DNA of 24,422 bases from a virus (IMGVR_UViG_3300048865_000005), one strand, 5' to 3'. Counted from the first letter of the stretch, positions 4,174 through 24,396 are shown. Numbers and translations are program-made. The notes: a model not told the origin generated them from the letters alone.

Positions 4174-5607
4174 TTATTTTATTTTGAAAGCATTGGATTG
4201 AGTTTGGATTGGAACAGCAAACGCGGGAAGTCTTCGATCTTGAGCTAGCTCTATAAAAGCATCACTAGTAGCGTCTACTTGATCGTCTTTATCTTTTTTG
4301 CTACCAGTAAAGCCTTCAAGCTCGAAGAAGTAATCGTCGTTCCACTCGCCTTCAACATAATCAATAAGTTCAGCTTCAGAAGCAGCGGCAAAAGGCTGGA
4401 ATCGAACAATTTTCGACTTATTAGTAGGCCGCATCTTTGCGTAGAAGCCTTCTTCAATAAGCTCTTTAATCATCATCTGCCCGGAAGACTTACCGGCTTG
4501 TCCCGGTTCTTGGGGGAGAATGATTTTTGTACCGGGAGGGTCGGATTTAGCAGTACTTATAATGTTCTGCATTACCTCGCCAAATCTCGCCCTGAATCTA
4601 ACTACGTCAACTATGATGTATCTTCCGGCTTTCGTTTTCGCCATTAATACACCAGCCGTCCAGTCAGGATTCGGGTTTACATCAGAAGGTAGTGTTCCGG
4701 CTATATCCCATGCTCTTACATATGAAACAATATCTTGGTCCCATAGATTGACAGTTGTTAACCACTCCCGTTTGAAATAACCAGAAGCGCTTTCACGAAC
4801 ATACCAATTACCGTCTAGAAGTCTTGCCCGTTCAACGCCCTTCAAACCCATAAGGTTTGCTACGTATTTTGGGTTAATCTTCTGAACAATCGGATTATCA
4901 CGAACAGTTGCAGAGATGAAAGTGAAGCTAAGTGCGAACTCTTCAGGAATACCGTAGTTGGCTAATAGCTCTTCTTTAGTATCACCCCAAACGAAGTCAC
5001 CTTCTTGGAAGCTGAAGTAACGTAACGTACCGTCTTTACTTCTATCTGGTGTACCATCTTCGTTAAGATATGGCTCAACCCACTTTCTTAAGAAATGGTC
5101 TGCATCAGGGTTACACGTAATCTTTAAGTGTGGTCTAACTTCCGGGCAACTTGGGTTTCGCATACGAGACTGAATATACTGAATCATATGCTGGGTAAAT
5201 TGTGTTCCTTCATCTACATAGAATAAGTTAGCTTCGGAACCTTGCCAGTTAACATCAGCATCATCGTTTTCGAAGTGCTTTAAATAGATTTCTGCACCGG
5301 ACTTATGGAATACAAATTTCCCGTCTTTAGCTCTCCACGTAAACTCATCAGGGCTATAAGCCATACCGAACAATCGCTTACATTTAGTAAGCAAGCCACC
5401 CGGACCTGTAAGTTGTGGGGTAGTTCGACGAGTCATTACACCAATGAAGTTAGGTGTATCTGTGTATTTTAGAAAATCGATAACGCCAATTTCAGACTTA
5501 CCGGAACCTGCCGCACCGCCAAAAAGCGTAACATCAGCTTCAGAAGTCATGTACATTAACTGACGATCAGAACAGGGACCGGGAAGTTTTTTATTTTCTT
5601 CGGTCAT
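4174..5607 (-). CDS. terL: Terminase large subunit (477 aa)
   Basis: Walker A FGGAAGSGKS, Walker B FYVDEG, coupling motif TCNP, and nuclease domain RAWDIA ... DDQVDATSDA. Confidence 0.95.
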   Translation of the reverse strand: MTEENKKLPGPCSDRQLMYMTSEADVTLFGGAAGSGKSEIGVIDFLKYTDTPNFIGVMTRRTTPQLTGPGGLLTKCKRLFGMAYSPDEFTWRAKDGKFVFHKSGAEIYLKHFENDDADVNWQGSEANLFYVDEGTQFTQHMIQYIQSRMRNPSCPEVRPHLKITCNPDADHFLRKWVEPYLNEDGTPDRSKDGTLRYFSFQEGDFVWGDTKEELLANYGIPEEFALSFTFISATVRDNPIVQKINPKYVANLMGLKGVERARLLDGNWYVRESASGYFKREWLTTVNLWDQDIVSYVRAWDIAGTLPSDVNPNPDWTAGVLMAKTKAGRYIIVDVVRFRARFGEVMQNIISTAKSDPPGTKIILPQEPGQAGKSSGQMMIKELIEEGFYAKMRPTNKSKIVRFQPFAAASEAELIDYVEGEWNDDYFFELEGFTGSKKDKDDQVDATSDAFIELAQDRRLPAFAVPIQTQSNAFKIK

Positions 5608-5808: not shown

Positions 5809-5884
5809 TGGCGAATCAGGTAAGAGTCGAACTTACAACCTTCGGTTTTGGAGACCGACGCTCTGCCAATTGAGCTACTGAGAC
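5809..5884 (-). tRNA. tRNA-Trp(CCA), 76 nt, two acceptor-stem mismatches
   Basis: Anticodon arm TCGGT-CT-CCA-AA-ACCGA, T-arm GTAAG-TTCGACT-CTTAC, G73 and CCA. Confidence 0.85.
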
Positions 5885-7857: not shown

Positions 7858-7899
7858 AATAAAAATAAGGCTACTAAGCAAGGAGGGAACTTAGCAGCC
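7858..7899 (-). terminator. Intrinsic terminator
   Basis: GGCTGCTAAG-11 nt loop-CTTAGTAGCC (10 bp, with a G-U pair only on the minus strand), followed by TTATTTTTATT. Confidence 0.75.
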
Positions 7900-8030
7900 T
7901 ATAATGTAAACTCATGGAAGAGGAGGAGGAGACACAAGTTTACAAAGACACACTCGGTTAGAGTGTTACGCACATTTGCTTGAATTTCTTCTTATTAGTG
8001 CGGGAGGGAGGAAACATTATTTTAAATCAG
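7860..8030 (-). ncRNA. Candidate ~170-nt sRNA with anti-SD pyrimidine tracts (ends approximate)
   Basis: Consensus promoter upstream, terminator downstream, three hairpins, three CCUCC-containing tracts, no convincing ORF. Confidence 0.6.
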
Positions 8031-8036
8031 AGAACC

Positions 8037-8065
8037 ATTATAGCACGAAAAGTCGAAATTGTCAA
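8037..8065 (-). promoter_or_regulatory. Sigma70 promoter TTGACA-17-TATAAT with extended -10 TG
   Basis: Perfect consensus hexamers at 8065-8060 and 8042-8037. Confidence 0.85.
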
Positions 8066-8091
8066 TACTTATAATTGACTTTTTAATAATT

Positions 8092-8386: not shown

Positions 8387-8414
8387 ATTATACCACGTTT
8401 TTCCAAATTGTCAA
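8387..8414 (-). promoter_or_regulatory. Sigma70 promoter TTGACA-16-TATAAT with extended -10 TG
   Basis: Consensus hexamers at 8414-8409 and 8392-8387. Flanks resemble those of promoter 8037-8065. Confidence 0.8.
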
Positions 8415-8471
8415 TACTTGTAATCAGATATTTATGCTTTTGTCAAACTTTTTTTTGCCCACTCTACAGCT

Positions 8472-9130: not shown

Positions 9131-9619
9131 TTAGAACGGCAGTTGATTTAGTTCTTCAGCCGTTGCCCTTCTGCTTAGAATGAAATCGTTCTTTATAGTG
9201 GGTTTTTGAGGGGTATTCTCGACGATCTCTTCAGAGTCGTCCGAACGTACCGCTTCATCAATCAAAACGTGTTTACCGTCGATTTCTTCCCACAACTTTA
9301 AATCTGCTACATCTGTGTATACCCAATGGTAGTAATTGCTGTATTTCTGCTTCTCTCCTGTCACAACACCGTGGGCTATTAGTTTTTTCATCATGGTAGC
9401 GATAGAGCGTATGTCTAGTCGTAAGGCATCCGCTATATCTTGCTGTTTGTCTCGGTGCTTCCAGCCCTTTTCAATGGTGAAGAATCTGTTACGACTCTTC
9501 ATAAACACATAAACAAGCTTTTCGTTGTTGTTTAGCTTTACAAACTCTCCTGTCACCGTCGATACGAAACCACCAGCCTTCGCAAGACTGTATGGGTACT
9601 GCATAAACCGTTCGCTCAT
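9131..9619 (-). CDS. Winged-helix DNA-binding protein, Rep-like (162 aa)
   Basis: KQQDIADALRLDIRSIATMMKKLIAHGVV HTH followed by a beta-wing (KQKYSNYYHWVY); GAGGAG SD. Confidence 0.6.
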   Translation of the reverse strand: MSERFMQYPYSLAKAGGFVSTVTGEFVKLNNNEKLVYVFMKSRNRFFTIEKGWKHRDKQQDIADALRLDIRSIATMMKKLIAHGVVTGEKQKYSNYYHWVYTDVADLKLWEEIDGKHVLIDEAVRSDDSEEIVENTPQKPTIKNDFILSRRATAEELNQLPF

Positions 9620-9640
9620 ACTCTCCTCATTTGTACATAC

Positions 9641-9883
9641 GAAAATATTTCATATGTGCATGTCTCTCTTACAGTCCTACGGACTCATACCAAAACCGAT
9701 CCGATCAGGATTCATACCAAATCAGACATTTGTTTATACCAATCCAAAACGCTCTTGCTCTTAAAGCTCTTAAAATCTGTATTACTATCTGTATAAATAT
9801 GTCTGTATTACTATTATGTAAATTTTTCATGTGTACACCGGAAAAGATTTCATATGTATATAGGAAATAATTTCATGTGTAAG
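9641..9883. repeat. Iteron-like direct repeats and nested short repeats
   Basis: Four ~20-mers with core TTTCATRTGT (9641-9660, 9818-9837, 9841-9860, 9864-9883; the last three at a 23-bp period). Also TYATACCAA x3, GCTCTT x3 and TCTGTATTACTAT x2. Confidence 0.75.
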
Positions 9884-18891: not shown

Positions 18892-19257
18892 ATGACGTAT
18901 AGATTTCATGTTCTGAAGCTTTATAGTTCTTCAGTAAACGCTAGGAAAGGTATGGAGGAGTACGTTAAAAGAAACTACAGAATGCCGAAAGGTAAAGAAG
19001 GGTTTCAAATATACTTCGATGAGGTACTGAAAGTAGATTGGAAATCGGGCTATATCCTCTACGACAATAAGCACCAAATATTTTTCTATAACATGAACTG
19101 CATACATTTCCGTATGCGTATATGTGCAGCAGACTTCCAGCTTATTGAACTCGTAGACCCACTAGAAGAATATGTTGATGACGAGGACTGTACCGCAGCA
19201 GACAAGATAGCATACTGCTATTCAAGATATCGCGGCCCATTTAAGTGGATTGACTAA
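18892..19257 (+). CDS. Hypothetical protein (121 aa)
   Basis: Co-directional and tightly packed. Confidence 0.65.
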   Translation: MTYRFHVLKLYSSSVNARKGMEEYVKRNYRMPKGKEGFQIYFDEVLKVDWKSGYILYDNKHQIFFYNMNCIHFRMRICAADFQLIELVDPLEEYVDDEDCTAADKIAYCYSRYRGPFKWID

Positions 19258-19814
19258 TGGAAGCAAAAGAACAGGCTGCAATACTGAGGGCCGAAGGCAA
19301 TACATACCCGAAGATCGTGGAGCTATTAGACGGACAGGTATCGTTAGATTGGTGTAAGCGAAACCTGAAGAACGTACAGAAGGAGACGAAGAAAGAGACT
19401 CTAGACCGTAAAGCCAGAGAGTTAGCTATACGAAGGGAAGGTGTAAGTGACAGAGAGCTAGTGAACCTAGCTTTCGAAGTACTCGGTACAGTAGAGAAAG
19501 GAGACATTACTAAACTGAAGAGACGTATCAAGAGACGCGGCAAGCAAGACAAGACAATGCTTGTACGTCCATCGTGGCTATCTACTCAGAATCCAGTCGG
19601 TAGCTTACACACTATGAATACGCTAGCTCATACGCTCTATGAGTACACGCAAGAGATGGTAGACGACTACATGTCTGCATACCCGGAAGCCAATCGGTTT
19701 AAGGTGTTGCAGGAATTGGTGTATCTGGCAAATGGCTGGACACTAAAAGAGAGCTTGGATACCAGACTAGAACGCAACATACGTACAGCCGAAGAGATGC
19801 AGTCTAGGTTATAG
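19257..19814 (+). CDS. HTH-domain protein (185 aa)
   Basis: N-terminal AILRAEGNTYPKIVELLDGQVSLDWCKRNL HTH-like segment; second helical basic segment; last gene of the rightward arm. Confidence 0.55.
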   Translation: MEAKEQAAILRAEGNTYPKIVELLDGQVSLDWCKRNLKNVQKETKKETLDRKARELAIRREGVSDRELVNLAFEVLGTVEKGDITKLKRRIKRRGKQDKTMLVRPSWLSTQNPVGSLHTMNTLAHTLYEYTQEMVDDYMSAYPEANRFKVLQELVYLANGWTLKESLDTRLERNIRTAEEMQSRL

Positions 19815-19957: not shown

Positions 19958-20528
19958 TTCCCAATCCCCCGCAGAAAAAGTAAGCCTCTTCTTAGAAGAC
20001 GTTTATTCCATACCTCAGAAAATATCTGTATACTAGAGTTCTGCAATTCCCCTCAGTTACATATCTCTTCAAGAAGGGCTTAACGGCCCGACTTTCAGTC
20101 GAACTACCAGCCCTCCAAAATCTAGAAATATCTGACGAACACTACAGGACAGGAATATTTCGACTTCGTATAACCTCTATTATGTTAAATAGGACGTTAT
20201 GGGAGGTTATTTCCATGTATGTTTGTACAGTGCTTGGAGTGTTTCACCTATACCCGCTAGGAAAACATACCGTATAAGCTTATATGCTCTTCCTTATGCT
20301 TAGCATAGAATTTATATCAAATTTCCCCGGCAAGCGATAGCGTAGCGGGTGGGCTTAACAATAGAGAGAGAGGAAGGGTATAAACTGAGGGTATTTAGAC
20401 CTGAAAAGGTATACCAATATAGAGGCTATTTGTTCCATGTGGAACATCATTATAACTAGGGATAATGAGGCTTTCAGCGTATTCTATATACGTCAATAAT
20501 CTGTCTGTATTATCAATTTATTACAGGC

Positions 20529-20564
20529 ATAATAAAGCCCGCATTAAGCGGGCTATTGTTATTT
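20529..20564. terminator. Probably bidirectional intrinsic terminator between convergent arms
   Basis: AGCCCGC-ATTAA-GCGGGCT (20536-20554) with A/T-rich tails on both sides. Confidence 0.75.
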
Positions 20565-20602
20565 AAATGTTATTTATTTGATATTTAATTAATGTTTATT
20601 TA

Positions 20603-20800
20603 TTAAAAACTGTATTCATTTTCACTATTTTCAAATTCTTTATAGTAATCACTTTCAAAGAAAGTATTAGCAACTTTACAGCAAGTATCGCAGTAAGCTC
20701 CTGAACTTTCAAAATGAGTCCGTTCTGCCTCACTATTAGCAACATAAATAAAAGGAGTATGGCAATTCAAGCAATTAAGGGCTAGTTTAGATATGTTCAT
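20603..20800 (-). CDS. Small zinc-ribbon-like protein (65 aa)
   Basis: CLNC ... CDTC pairs. Confidence 0.65.
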   Translation of the reverse strand: MNISKLALNCLNCHTPFIYVANSEAERTHFESSGAYCDTCCKVANTFFESDYYKEFENSENEYSF

Positions 20801-20877
20801 TTAAATTCATCTCAGGGCTGTAAGGTTAGGTGTGAGGGTAGACATAGCGGCCTACCCTATCCGATTAGTATTGAAAT

Positions 20878-21204
20878 TTACTGTACATTCCGGCGCTGTT
20901 CTGCCTTGGAAAGCATCCGGTCTTGAACAGAGACGCGGCAGATATATTCACTATTAGGAATGGCATTCATCCACTCTTCAAACCCATTTTTAGCGTATCG
21001 GGCTTTCATCACTGACAAAAGAGCCTCTTTAACCTCGGAGACGGTCGGGGCTTTGTCTAGTAGGTCTTGATGGTATGCAGCGGCAGAAGTGTAGCCGTTC
21101 TGAGCATAGTAGCGCATGTTGTACGTTGCCAAGTCCCGGTTAGAGTCTTTAACATCGGCCATTACTTGACGCTGGATGTAGGTCGGCAGAGTGGAAAATT
21201 TCAT
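20878..21204 (-). CDS. Hypothetical early protein (108 aa)
   Basis: Start revised to ATG after GAGGTG. Confidence 0.7.
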   Translation of the reverse strand: MKFSTLPTYIQRQVMADVKDSNRDLATYNMRYYAQNGYTSAAAYHQDLLDKAPTVSEVKEALLSVMKARYAKNGFEEWMNAIPNSEYICRVSVQDRMLSKAEQRRNVQ

Positions 21205-21252
21205 GCTAATCACCTCGGATCAGGGAAGGCGTCTTGCCTTGGTATGGGAGAG

Positions 21253-21281
21253 ATTATAAATACTTATAACCTCCCGTGCAA
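21253..21281 (-). promoter_or_regulatory. Early sigma70 promoter TTGCAC-17-TATAAT with 18-bp palindrome
   Basis: Palindrome copy 21253-21270, 16/18 to consensus. Confidence 0.8.
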
Positions 21282-21294
21282 GCTTTTCTTTTGA

Positions 21295-21411
21295 TTACAA
21301 AGTAAACCATGCACCGATGACGAATGCAGAAATAGCAATCAAAGGTACAGAAAGCATGGCACACACAACAAGCATACCTACCGCATGGAACACCTCAAAA
21401 AACTTATCCAT
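21295..21411 (-). CDS. Single-TM peptide (38 aa), not in ORF track
   Basis: AGGAG SD; MDKFFEVFHAVGMLVVCAMLSVPLIAISAFVIGAWFTL; own promoter. Confidence 0.65.
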   Translation of the reverse strand: MDKFFEVFHAVGMLVVCAMLSVPLIAISAFVIGAWFTL

Positions 21412-21448
21412 CTGCCCGACTCCTAAGAACCAATAAAAAGATAGGCGA

Positions 21449-21477
21449 ATTATAAGTATATGTAATTATTCGGTCAA
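21449..21477 (-). promoter_or_regulatory. Early sigma70 promoter TTGACC-17-TATAAT with 18-bp palindrome
   Basis: Palindrome copy 21449-21466, 15/18. Confidence 0.8.
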
Positions 21478-21521
21478 CATATTTTTAAAAAGAGATAACA
21501 TTTATAGCCTTTAGGATTGCT

Positions 21522-21752
21522 TTAACAGTTACAGCCATTCCCTACCCTCCCGGCACTCTTAACAGGTATTACATGTACTTTTGTTTTAGACGTTTGGACA
21601 TAGGACAAGCTTACCTTGTACCCTTCGGACTCTGGAAATAGAGCTTTAAAATGACGAGTCAAGGCAATGGCCGATTCTTGGTCTTTAAGGCTCTTTTCTG
21701 ACGTTGCAAAATAGAGTCTACCATTCTTGTATACTGTAATTTCATAGTGCAT
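21522..21752 (-). CDS. Hypothetical early protein (76 aa)
   Basis: Start revised to MHYEITVYKNG after GAGGTG. Confidence 0.7.
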   Translation of the reverse strand: MHYEITVYKNGRLYFATSEKSLKDQESAIALTRHFKALFPESEGYKVSLSYVQTSKTKVHVIPVKSAGRVGNGCNC

Positions 21753-21820
21753 GGCCTGCACCTCTAAAGCGTTCCTGTTCTTACTTATCGGCATAGGTTA
21801 CTTAGACTTTAAAGCCCGGA

Positions 21821-22276
21821 TTACCGGGCTAGGCTGCTCAGCATGGCTTCATATTCTTGTAAGTCTCGCTTGTCTTGTTCCTGAGACTCTTCAAACAATG
21901 CTTCCGCACCTTTGTAGCTATCGCGGTTTGCTTCGCGTGCTTCGATAGCTTTCTTTAGGCGGTTAATTTCACGCTTTAGGCGCTTTTGTTCCTTAGCCTG
22001 CTTTGCCGCCTCTACTTCGTTGACAGTGCCTACAACATGGCGTAGCCATACGGTCTCACTCTTGCCGCTTTGCGGAAGGTACTTGATAACCTTCTCAACG
22101 CCTTGCGCATCGCAGTGGTAGAACAGGCTGAAGTTGTTGCCGTATACGTCACCGCCACAAATGAAAGTGTTTAGCTCTTGGCACTGTGACAGAAGGAACG
22201 CGGCCTGCTTCTCGGACTTGAACAGACCATTATTAGATTTGACAAGGGAAGCGAAAGAAACGGCAACGTTCGACAT
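21821..22276 (-). CDS. Hypothetical early protein with C-terminal coiled coil (151 aa)
   Basis: Start revised to MSNVAV after GGAG. Confidence 0.7.
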   Translation of the reverse strand: MSNVAVSFASLVKSNNGLFKSEKQAAFLLSQCQELNTFICGGDVYGNNFSLFYHCDAQGVEKVIKYLPQSGKSETVWLRHVVGTVNEVEAAKQAKEQKRLKREINRLKKAIEAREANRDSYKGAEALFEESQEQDKRDLQEYEAMLSSLAR

Positions 22277-22326
22277 GTTACAACTCCGAGAGCTGAGGAG
22301 GACCATTCCCCCTCTTCATGCTGGTA

Positions 22327-22355
22327 ATTATAAGTACTTATAATCCAATGCGCAA
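22327..22355 (-). promoter_or_regulatory. Early sigma70 promoter TTGCGC-17-TATAAT with perfect 18-bp palindrome
   Basis: ATTATAAGTACTTATAAT at 22327-22344. Confidence 0.85.
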
Positions 22356-22359
22356 GCTT

Positions 22360-22686
22360 TTATTCACCGCTTGCAAAGGTTTTTCCAACTACTTGCATAA
22401 AGGCTTCATAGTCTTTTTTAGCTTGTTCATCACAGGCTAGCCAGTCTCCGAAATCAGGCGACGGAATCATAACGATATCCAAACGATTATTTGCCTCTTG
22501 GGGAATAAGTGCCTGACTCCATGAAGGAACAGTACCAACCGAGTAAATGCGAAACAACATTTTCCGGTAGCCAAACAACATAACCTGATCCAAGCTGTAA
22601 GGGTTGAACTTTCCTTTCCAAGCTTTACCGCCATTTGCACAAAAGGCTTTGATGTATGCTTTAACTGTTGGGTGCTGCTTAGCCAT
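22360..22686 (-). CDS. Hypothetical early protein (108 aa)
   Basis: GAGGT SD. Confidence 0.7.
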   Translation of the reverse strand: MAKQHPTVKAYIKAFCANGGKAWKGKFNPYSLDQVMLFGYRKMLFRIYSVGTVPSWSQALIPQEANNRLDIVMIPSPDFGDWLACDEQAKKDYEAFMQVVGKTFASGE

Positions 22687-22737
22687 GATACTAACCTCAG
22701 AGACTAGGGAACGTCTACCGTCCCCTTTATGTCATTC

Positions 22738-22765
22738 ATTATAAGTGCTTATAATAATATGTAAA
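22738..22765 (-). promoter_or_regulatory. Early sigma70 promoter TTTACA-16-TATAAT with 18-bp palindrome
   Basis: Palindrome copy 22738-22755, 17/18. Confidence 0.75.
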
Positions 22766-22773
22766 GACTTTTA

Positions 22774-22983
22774 TTATCTGAATGGTTCATTACGCCATAG
22801 CTGCTCGACTTCTTCTAACTGAATATCCGCCTTGGTTACACTATCAGATGTGGATATGTCGAAGCGCTTACAGGTACGTTCGATCATATACATAGCGTTA
22901 TTAATCGCCTCTATTGTTTGCTTGTTCATACAAGGCGATTCAGCGAGTAAAGAGAGTTGATACATTACAGCTTGGATATTCAT
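22774..22983 (-). CDS. Hypothetical early protein (69 aa)
   Basis: AGGAG SD. Confidence 0.7.
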   Translation of the reverse strand: MNIQAVMYQLSLLAESPCMNKQTIEAINNAMYMIERTCKRFDISTSDSVTKADIQLEEVEQLWRNEPFR

Positions 22984-22997
22984 TATAAAGACTCCTA

Positions 22998-23300
22998 TTA
23001 GGCAAATAGAGCGGATTGTTCGGTATTGTACGTTGCTTTGTTTTCCATAGTCTTGCGGGCTACTTGGGAAAACTTGGCGGAGTATGTCACGTCATAGTCT
23101 AGACCGAAACACACTTTCACAACATGCTTGACGGTCTCGGTGCTTCCGTCGATTAGCAGCAAACCTTTACCGATGAAGTGACCGAATAGGGTACGCTGTT
23201 CTTTAGCAGATAGTTTGCCTTCCCATTTACCGCACACCGAGCCGGTACGCTCAAGAAGAAAGAAAGCTAGGTTTGCCACTGCTTCAAACTTGTCCATCAC
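22998..23300 (-). CDS. Hypothetical early protein (100 aa)
   Basis: GAGGTG SD. Confidence 0.7.
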   Translation of the reverse strand: MMDKFEAVANLAFFLLERTGSVCGKWEGKLSAKEQRTLFGHFIGKGLLLIDGSTETVKHVVKVCFGLDYDVTYSAKFSQVARKTMENKATYNTEQSALFA

Positions 23301-23347
23301 TTCACCTCTACCGTGTGAGGCGAGTTGTTCGCCTCTCTATAGGAATG

Positions 23348-23376
23348 ATTATAAGTATTTGTAATTTAGAGGTCAA
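23348..23376 (-). promoter_or_regulatory. Early sigma70 promoter TTGACC-17-TATAAT with 18-bp palindrome
   Basis: Palindrome copy 23348-23365, 16/18. Confidence 0.85.
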
Positions 23377-23379
23377 GAA

Positions 23380-23712
23380 TTATTTAATGAAATTTTCTAA
23401 GCTATTCGCAAAGGCTTTGTGCTGCTTATGGCTGTTTATATCTAATCCAAGCGCGGTAGCGTCGAGAGAACACAAAGCAAGCATAAACCTTGCCTTACCT
23501 TCGATAATATGTGCAGAAACAATACCGTCAAACTTGGACGTTTTAACGTATGCAGCAAACAAAGTGCCGTTAGGCTTATAAAACAAAACTTTGCCTTTCT
23601 TGTGTTCGTAATAACCTGAAGCTGTACGGCCTGCTAATGGTTTGAAAAGTGTATTAACTATAGCGTCAGAGCCTTTGACAAAGTATTGACCGTCGAACGT
23701 TGCAATAGTCAT
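23380..23712 (-). CDS. Hypothetical early protein (110 aa)
   Basis: GAGGG SD. Confidence 0.7.
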   Translation of the reverse strand: MTIATFDGQYFVKGSDAIVNTLFKPLAGRTASGYYEHKKGKVLFYKPNGTLFAAYVKTSKFDGIVSAHIIEGKARFMLALCSLDATALGLDINSHKQHKAFANSLENFIK

Positions 23713-23759
23713 TCTAAACCCTCACAAACTTTGATATTAAACTAAGTTTCCCTTCTCGT

Positions 23760-24053
23760 TCAAACCTTTACGCGACGTTTGATTAAACGATAACTTCCAG
23801 AGCCGTTTAATTGATACTCTTTTAAACGGACTTTCGCTTCTTTTTCATTATCTTCCGTGCTTTCGTCGTCCCAGCCGTAACCGTAGTTACCCTGCACTAT
23901 GAATTCCTGAACGGTCCGACGCGTTACCTTAATTTCCGGCTTATGCTCGCCACTGTCTACAAGCAACTTTTTTGCCTCTTCCGCTGTTGTGGCGTCAGTG
24001 AAAAATACTGTGTCAATCAGTTTACCGTTTAAACGCACATTAAAGCTTGCCAT
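23760..24053 (-). CDS. Hypothetical early protein (97 aa)
   Basis: AGGA SD; QGNYGYGWDD motif. Confidence 0.7.
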   Translation of the reverse strand: MASFNVRLNGKLIDTVFFTDATTAEEAKKLLVDSGEHKPEIKVTRRTVQEFIVQGNYGYGWDDESTEDNEKEAKVRLKEYQLNGSGSYRLIKRRVKV

Positions 24054-24084
24054 TTTCGAATTCCTATGCTTGATTTACAGAATA

Positions 24085-24113
24085 ATTATAAACACTTATA
24101 ACATTTAAGTCAA
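24085..24113 (-). promoter_or_regulatory. Early sigma70 promoter TTGACT-17-TATAAT with 18-bp palindrome
   Basis: Palindrome copy 24085-24102, 15/18. Confidence 0.85.
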
Positions 24114-24117
24114 GAAA

Positions 24118-24336
24118 TTATTCGTAATATTTTTCATCAGTAATTAACAGTGTACCGCCGAACATATTCACACGGTCTTTCATCTGCTCAACAGTCATGA
24201 AAGGTTCGATAGAAAAATCGATATAATAGCTATCGTTACACATGTAAACGTCGCCTGTATGGTACTGTACAGCTTGTGGAAAAGCCATAAATTTTGCTAT
24301 TTCTTTGGCGGTGGAGAAGAATGCGCAAGCTTTCAT
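24118..24336 (-). CDS. Hypothetical early protein (72 aa)
   Basis: AGGA SD. Confidence 0.7.
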   Translation of the reverse strand: MKACAFFSTAKEIAKFMAFPQAVQYHTGDVYMCNDSYYIDFSIEPFMTVEQMKDRVNMFGGTLLITDEKYYE

Positions 24337-24367
24337 GATTTTTCCTATGTCTGGTTAAGATGTGATC

Positions 24368-24396
24368 ATTATAAGTACTTGTAATATTGAGGTCAA
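24368..24396 (-). promoter_or_regulatory. Early sigma70 promoter TTGACC-17-TATAAT with 18-bp palindrome
   Basis: Palindrome copy 24368-24385, 17/18. Confidence 0.85.

Follow-up and report, generated by a model that had tools for sequence, protein, structure and literature searches.

The operators of the lambdoid phages (lambda, 434, P22) that are read by Cro, CI or Xre-type proteins are dyads of 14-18 bp whose half sites are spaced by about one helical turn around a weak centre; they overlap the -10 or the -35 box of a promoter and are bound by dimers of helix-turn-helix (HTH) proteins. The same layout characterises an 18-bp palindromic element that we describe here in an uncultured soil phage (IMGVR_UViG_3300048865_000005), of which a stretch of 24,422 nucleotides (the window) was analysed. 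Lambdoid phages have around six operators in one immunity region, whereas here some 20-24 sites are spread over 17 kb, and one half of the element is the -10 box itself. We suggest, with confidence that does not go beyond an even balance, that the element is the cis operator of a symmetric dimeric repressor, fused to about 20 predicted sigma70-type early promoters.

The nearest functional analogues are the C1 operators of P1, the inverted repeats of phiC31 and the stoperators of L5 and, for lytic cycles, TF1 of SPO1 and p4/p6 of phi29. P1, a plasmid prophage equipped with a partition system, has about 17 or more C1 operators. In P1, phiC31 and L5, one repressor acts at many dispersed sites located at early or lytic promoters, which is what we propose for this phage. 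These three phages are demonstrably temperate, whereas the relatives of the phage studied here are virulent. The sites of P1 and L5 are asymmetric, in contrast to the dyad found here, and those of L5 block elongation. The likeness to SPO1 and phi29 is that a DNA-binding protein made early by the phage turns early promoters down in a purely lytic cycle (PMC3100819). However, TF1 is HU-like and prefers DNA containing hydroxymethyluracil, p4/p6 form a nucleoprotein hairpin at three promoters, and neither system repeats a palindromic operator at around 20 promoters.

The early promoters of T4-type phages, with or without the stem-loop that makes them early promoter/stem-loop cassettes (PeSLs), are comparable in another respect: dozens of strong promoters read by the host polymerase precede non-essential early genes, and their consensus extends past the hexamers (PMC2988021, PMC1524935, PMC2839356). 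In T4, this additional consensus consists of an UP element, GTTTAC and a GT-rich or TGn motif, whereas here TGn is absent and the conserved block is dyad symmetric. Most of the promoters here lack the terminator stem-loop by which PeSLs are defined. Outside a few models, early shut-off is poorly understood in phages that lack an RNA polymerase of their own; in T4, it is not explained by AsiA (PMC2988021).

Exact-protein look-ups led to a Logan contig of 88,310 bp and to a Joint Genome Institute (JGI) soil contig, and the whole genome was rebuilt from public contigs (88,295 bp after removal of a 15-bp end overlap; 41.2% GC). The 15 bp that the ends of the Logan contig have in common (window 5849-5863) show that the assembly is circular or circularly permuted. 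Coordinates are positions in the window and, beyond its end, window-equivalent positions on the rebuilt genome. The window belongs, judging from its head genes, portal, terminase and four transfer RNAs (tRNAs), to a Felix-O1/PAK_P1/PAK_P3-like myovirus. The terminase is 52% identical to those of Nankokuvirus/PAK_P3-type Pseudomonas phages, and tRNAs are the only Rfam matches. The layout of the genome mirrors that of PAK_P3, in which a block of ORFan genes, gp74-gp112, is the experimentally defined early region (PMC4933390). The two phages are alike in genome size, synteny and the presence of a small-ORFan block with sigma70-type promoters, which in PAK_P3 were mapped or annotated from RNA-seq (PMC4933390, PMC10914365). 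They differ at the promoters themselves: PAK_P3 has neither the palindrome nor a repeated spacer block, and its -10 boxes are mostly TAGAAT, its mapped early promoters reading TTGACA-N16/17-TAGAAT with unrelated spacers (PMC4933390, PMC10914365).

An 18-bp element shared by the promoters of the small-ORFan cluster

A sequence-only reading of the window had proposed that all seven early promoters share an 18-bp palindrome which lies at about -24 to -7, ends on TATAAT and is perfect at 22327-22344. A scan of the window recovered the 18-mer at each of the seven positions with 0-3 mismatches (Table 1), and nine matches in total against 0.04 expected from shuffled sequences. The register is as proposed when the sites are read on the minus strand, which carries these promoters and all the genes between 20.8 and 24.4 kb. 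Each site then ends in a perfect TATAAT, and the copy at 22327 is the only perfect palindrome among the seven. A -35-like hexamer (TTGACC, TTGACT, TTGCGC, TTGCAC or TTTACA) is found upstream at a spacing of 17 bp, or 16 bp in one case, and a start codon follows 20-90 nt downstream of each promoter. By sequence, the seven sites are sigma70-type promoters of small ORFan genes. The consensus on the coding strand is (A/G)TTA(C/T)AAGTACTTATAAT, with C at position 5 in half of the copies.

The seven promoters exist, but their number is set by the edge of the window. The early cluster is one leftward block of roughly 13 kb that extends about 10 kb past the window end. The motif scan of the whole genome that had been advised was made with a position weight matrix, copies of at least 22 bits being called strong (the maximum in shuffled genomes was 10-13 bits). 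It found 17 strong copies (22-29 bits), every one of them on the early strand and within window-equivalent positions 21253-29536, and weaker copies at 29893, 29927, 33166, 37546/37576 and 38484. In total, about 24 sites are found across 4.5-38.5 kb, 17 of them strong and about seven weaker or shifted, and the scan gave no site in the 39-88 kb part of the genome, which encodes DNA-metabolism and structural genes. The symmetric core TTAYAA-N4-TTRTAA occurs 17 times in the genome, always within 21254-37577; AGTACT is not enriched (12 observed versus about 10 expected in 34 kb). The isolated right-half match within the terminase gene (Table 1) may be an antisense promoter lacking a -35 box or a stray half site. 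In PAK_P3, early antisense RNAs are annotated across the terminase gene.

We also searched for the element in other genomes. The motif is absent from the five related IMG/VR records searched, and a census of 11-mers in two complete relatives of 88-90 kb gave no repeat in one and a single A-rich word, present five times, in the other. Scans for exact matches to the palindrome pattern, with and without a -35 box, in IMG/VR, JGI metagenomes and 185,579 species genomes returned single matches at chance level and no multi-copy contig, and the exact sequence strings had no match in the literature. The early region had no near-identical DNA match among 50,697 phage records, and the relatives found in IMG/VR through the terminase are at most 59% identical. 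All public contigs of the phage are 100% identical, including three (L130-L132) that appeared to be gene-content variants of contig L129.

The conservation of the promoters is concentrated in the element (figures for conservation and symmetry cover 16 strong copies). Pairwise identity is 1.00 in the -10 box, 0.79 in the spacer block (-24 to -13) and 0.59 in the -35 box. It is at chance level in the 5 bp between the -35 box and the block (-29 to -25; 0.29) and in the discriminator (-6 to -1; 0.32), and is 0.32 at +1 to +10. The information content at -23 to -21 and at -19 to -17 is as high as in the -10 box and higher than in the -35 box. The spacer block is under selection, as the earlier reading had argued from the premise that sigma70 spacers are largely unconstrained. 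This premise is broadly right, but the early promoters of T4 have extra consensus without a known operator (PMC2988021). The same reading held that duplicated cassettes with equally conserved flanks would speak against its proposal; the flanks proved to be at chance identity. Recent duplication of whole cassettes is excluded because neutral positions inside the promoter are at chance identity as well. A perfect TATAAT is present in 16 of 16 copies, together with an A-rich, UP-like tract at -44 to -40. In 14 of the 16, the perfect TATAAT stands 16-17 bp from TTGxxx or TTTACA, a pair of hexamers that is sigma70-type by its letters, and a start codon follows after 20-90 bp; in two copies, no -35 box stands at the usual distance.

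The element is also a dyad. Complementarity holds in every one of the 16 copies for four of the nine mirror pairs (2-17, 3-16, 4-15 and 6-13) and in 15 copies for pair 7-12. Positions -19 to -13 are not part of the -10 hexamer, yet the inner AAGTACTT is symmetric, and dyad symmetry thus extends beyond the positions that sigma70 dictates. The left half is free to take C or T at position 5, whereas sigma70 constrains the right half to TATAAT. Conservation is lowest in the central four positions (GTAC) and in the outermost one. Dyad symmetry over 18 bp with a weaker centre is what operators of Cro/CI/Xre-type dimers have, a less conserved centre being usual in sites that two HTH domains read. As operators do, the site overlaps core promoter elements, covering -24 to -7 at 15 promoters and the -35 box at four.

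Copies of the element in other registers

Some copies are placed differently relative to the promoter. At 8058 and 8407 (Table 1), an intact left half (ATTAYAAGTA, 10 of 10 positions) abuts TTGACAAT, and the palindrome lies at about -45 to -28, covering the -35 box; the promoter at 8058 feeds a small RNA (sRNA), tRNA and head genes. The copies at 29536 and 25886 have no -35 box in the usual place; the element starts with TTTACA there, with TAGAAT or TAAAAT 16-17 bp downstream, and judging from this spacing, the left half acts as the -35 box for another promoter. At 33166, the element forms a weak promoter that is followed at once by a palindrome-free TTGACG-17-GATAAT promoter. At 37546/37576, two copies stand in tandem, 30 bp apart, in a 600-bp gap, and the copy at 37576 lies upstream of a second promoter, as at 33166. 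The element is therefore separable from the promoter, as expected of an operator: it occurs in three registers, and upstream copies are present at 33166 and 37576. Since the register varies and a core promoter box is always covered, the site of an occluding repressor fits better than a polymerase contact.

The gap that holds the tandem palindromes also contains a CCTCCCTCCCC tract (L201 4700-4830, about 37.6 kb window-equivalent), downstream of a promoter-like TTGACG-17-TTAGAA site. The tract resembles the anti-Shine-Dalgarno loops of the sRNA at 7858-8065 and may be a second such RNA.

A putative repressor and the competing interpretations

We favour an operator over duplication and over polymerase tuning because the flanks are at chance level, the symmetry extends beyond sigma70 and the element occurs in other registers. 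In the proposed model, host RNA polymerase would fire the early promoters upon entry of the DNA. The reader of the element would then occupy -24 to -7 at most promoters and the -35 box at four, occluding the polymerase, and this occupancy would shut off the whole ORFan block together. Most likely, the reader is made from the same cluster, which would close a negative feedback loop. If the binding is true, this would be a simple operator-repressor answer to early shut-off in a lytic-type myovirus, and the promoters would form a compact, strong and repressible set for Pseudomonas-type hosts. The locus is a clean test case: about 20 promoters carry one operator-like site, the halves of which can be mutated apart from the polymerase signals. 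PAK_P3-like relatives with the same architecture and without the site, and a single obvious candidate reader, would further help such tests.

An operator for a dimeric repressor, as the sequence-only reading had it, is what best fits the dyad, the flanks and the registers, but the two reader proteins proposed there are poor candidates. For the product of 19257-19814, no family was recovered, and the atlas gave nothing but sub-threshold leads to small HTH families. That of 9131-9619 (minus strand) is a DUF6945 replication-initiator-like winged helix with an iteron array of its own next to it. Upstream of this gene, a stretch free of genes (9627-9880) contains three 31-nt repeats (TCATnTGTAyA...ATTTCATrTGT), three TCTGTATTACTAT and two GGAyTCATACCAAA, which look like an iteron or origin-type array in a divergent promoter region. 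A second DUF6945/MarR-like winged-helix protein, of 104 aa, is encoded just upstream of the primase-helicase (L201 9450-9764, window-equivalent 42384-42698) and resembles the N-terminal part of the 9131-9619 product.

A better candidate is a 105-aa Xre/HTH_37 (HTH_37/HTH_3) protein (E 8.6e-18) encoded inside the cluster and outside the window, at L129 1715-2032 (window-equivalent 32305-32622). No other clear DNA-binding domain came up within the cluster when about 40 proteins from it and its surroundings were scanned with Pfam and PHROG. The homodimer model of this protein scored 0.78, whereas the best of three controls scored 0.00; the runs agreed by 100%, and the predicted local distance difference test was at least 84. 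A score this high was obtained for 21 of 30 solved homodimers and for none of 23 single chains. Residues 16-38 and 69-103 form the modelled interface, and the HTH segment (39-68) stays free. The only solved relative is 2a6c, and since this structure is already solved, passing the test may show likeness to a dimeric family, not binding. The operon of the HTH_37 protein is preceded by strong promoters without the palindrome (L129 668-695 and 1178-1206), the only such promoters in the cluster, and no homologue of the protein was found in the five related IMG/VR records. We consider that the reader is most likely encoded by the phage, the HTH_37 protein being the best candidate. The reader may instead be encoded by the host; the scans of the 185,579 species genomes gave none with several copies of the site and no host regulon.

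Several points weigh against an operator with this reader. Half of the palindrome is the -10 box, so its symmetry is partly forced, and perfect symmetry is broken by the C at position 5 in half of the copies and by the variable position 1. The shifted copies match the 18-mer consensus in part only (13-15 of 18 positions where counted), and one of the copies at 8058 and 8407 could have arisen by duplication of the other. The HTH_37 protein stands out mainly as the only Pfam-recognisable HTH of the cluster. A homology search in 5.8 billion proteins returned the protein itself and no close homologue, and members of the HTH_37 family are often antitoxins with a single operator. The motif was found in no relative, which leaves no second site and reader to compare for co-evolution. 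The label "early" is given to the cluster by synteny with PAK_P3, and T4 early promoters, for which no operator is known, have "additional regions of consensus" (PMC2988021).

The most serious alternative, which we nevertheless find unlikely, is that the block is a "super-promoter" feature read by the host RNA polymerase (through sigma region 3 or the beta-prime zipper), or by a polymerase altered by a virion factor, the palindrome being incidental. The consensus outside the canonical elements of T4 early promoters has been read as optimised polymerase contacts (PMC2988021, PMC1524935). The TATAAT that is perfect in every copy and the A-rich tract at -44 to -40 fit selection for strength, and two copies do without a -35 box in the usual register, as though the block compensated for it. 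Yet an extended -10 (TGn), a known strength element, is found in none of the 16 copies, which have ACT instead, in a phage that uses TGn at 8058, 8407 and 29536. The -35 boxes stay below consensus (mostly TTGACC/T, with TTGACA once), and the conservation peak at -23 to -21 is distant from known sigma contacts and mirrors the -10 half. An intrinsic contact also fits poorly with the element lying on the -35 box at four promoters, and PAK_P3, which infects Pseudomonas and has the same promoter architecture, has free spacers.

It is less probable still that the same operator serves another purpose, namely immunity in a carrier or prophage state of plasmid-like kind that is kept by a ParA-type partition cassette, the early promoters being silenced for generations instead of being shut off at a set time in a lytic cycle. 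A PAK_P3/Felix-O1-like phage would then have a P1-like network, an improbable arrangement in our view, in which an Xre-type dimer reading about 24 operators, together with the ParA cassette, would make it a silent plasmid-like episome. A ParA/CbiA gene and a small ribbon-helix-helix-like gene do lie about 2 kb upstream of the early cluster, and the presence of this partition gene leaves the earlier description of a non-integrating lytic phage uncertain. The palindrome-free promoters could keep the HTH_37 operon expressed under repression. A tandem pair of sites is present at 37546/37576, and the many dispersed sites across 4.5-38.5 kb recall C1 of P1, multi-operator repressors being typical of P1, phiC31 and L5. 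However, all this evidence is positional. We saw no integrase, plasmid-type replication module beyond the phage's own, antirepressor or S24 cleavage domain, and the relatives are strictly virulent therapeutic phages (PMC4309531). If the carrier-state network were true, it would be relevant to the strict virulence that is assumed for this therapeutic group.

We give little credence to concerted evolution, in which promoter cassettes would have been spread or homogenised by recombination in the manner of PeSLs, the block providing recombination homology and having no reader. Around 20 near-identical promoter cores of 29 bp stand between ORFans in a hyperplastic-looking region, and in RB49 and phi1, gene shuffling by PeSLs has been documented (PMC2839356). 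But the chance identity of the inner 5 bp and of the discriminator is unlike gene conversion or recent duplication, and the pairing of early promoter and terminator stem-loop that makes a PeSL is not the rule here, with terminator-like stem-loops before two of about 19 promoters (L129 1117-1136 and 4357-4376, before the promoters at L129 1154 and 4393/4427). The identity of all public contigs also means that no shuffling events are visible.

Bidirectional promoters are the least credible reading: the left half (ATTATA) would be the -10 box of a divergent antisense promoter with its -35 box in CATCAA (reverse complement TTGATG) at +1 to +6, for which a consensus scan gives antisense TTGATG-17/18-TATAAT at L129 8734-8706 and 5874-5845, CATCAA lies 6 nt after the -10 box at about eight promoters past the window end (L129 5146-8723, window-equivalent 25614-29191) and PAK_P3 makes many antisense RNAs (PMC4933390), but CATCAA is absent from all seven window promoters, half of the copies have ATTACA and thus a weaker antisense -10 (TGTAAT), the antisense spacer is 18 bp with a -35 box matching 4 of 6 positions, and neither the conserved AAGTAC centre nor the copies on the -35 box are explained.

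Two further candidates were rejected. A hairpin or cruciform has a fold energy of 0 to -1.7 kcal/mol, and 8 of 27 deviating mirror-position pairs stay complementary; because of this negligible energy and because the deviations are one-sided, DNA or RNA structure is unlikely. MerR-type operators are palindromes within an over-long spacer of 19-20 bp, from which activation proceeds by DNA distortion, whereas the spacers here have the optimum of 17 bp (16 bp once).

Coordinates and neighbouring observations

Table 1. Predicted promoters, the cluster they serve and further copies of the element within the window (bits are scores of the position weight matrix).
Feature	Coordinates	Strand	Details
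Promoter TTGACC-17-TATAAT	24368..24396	-	palindrome 24368-24385 (ATTACAAGTACTTATAAT on the minus strand); 29.3 bits; before 72-aa ORFan 24118-24336
Promoter TTGACT-17-TATAAT	24085..24113	-	palindrome 24085-24102; 22.8 bits; before genes 23760-24053 and 23380-23712
Promoter TTGACC-17-TATAAT	23348..23376	-	palindrome 23348-23365; 26.8 bits; before genes 22998-23300 and 22774-22983
Promoter TTTACA-16-TATAAT	22738..22765	-	palindrome 22738-22755; 27.8 bits; before gene 22360-22686
Promoter TTGCGC-17-TATAAT	22327..22355	-	perfect palindrome 22327-22344; 28.8 bits; before gene 21821-22306 (Phage_T4_Y05D family)
Promoter TTGACC-17-TATAAT	21449..21477	-	palindrome 21449-21466; 23.2 bits; before 38-aa hydrophobic open reading frame (ORF) 21295-21411
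Promoter TTGCAC-17-TATAAT	21253..21281	-	palindrome 21253-21270; 25.0 bits; last early promoter, before gene 20878-21213 (last of the cluster)
Leftward small-ORFan cluster, part in the window	20878..24336	-	syntenic with the PAK_P3 early region gp74-gp112
Isolated right-half match CAGTACTTATAAT	4546..4563	+	inside and antisense to terminase gene 4174-5607; no -35 box; 16.0 bits; 12/12 match
Shifted copy	8037..8075	-	ATTATAAGTA then TTGACAAT (8058-8075); 14.2 bits; right half is the -35 box of TTGACA-17-TGcTATAAT
Second shifted copy	8387..8424	-	ATTACAAGTA then TTGACAAT (8407-8424); 14.7 bits; on the -35 box of TTGACA-16-TGgTATAAT

The strongly hydrophobic 38-aa ORF (21295-21411, minus strand) is the sole product of the promoter at 21449 and is probably a small membrane peptide. 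In four of the seven leaders in the window, a GC-rich hairpin stands a few bases past the predicted start (23313-23340, 22690-22720, 22280-22315 and 21215-21240, all on the minus strand; for example, GAGGCGA-acaac-TCGCCTC). These hairpins could stabilise the 5' end or act in translation.

A region of about 900 bp (19990-20870) that separates the early cluster from the convergent rightward cluster has no convincing ORF. It contains a bidirectional terminator hairpin (20536-20554) and a promoter-like CTGAAA-17-TATAAT (20449-20477, minus strand), and the predicted genome terminus of PAK_P3 falls in the area syntenic to it.

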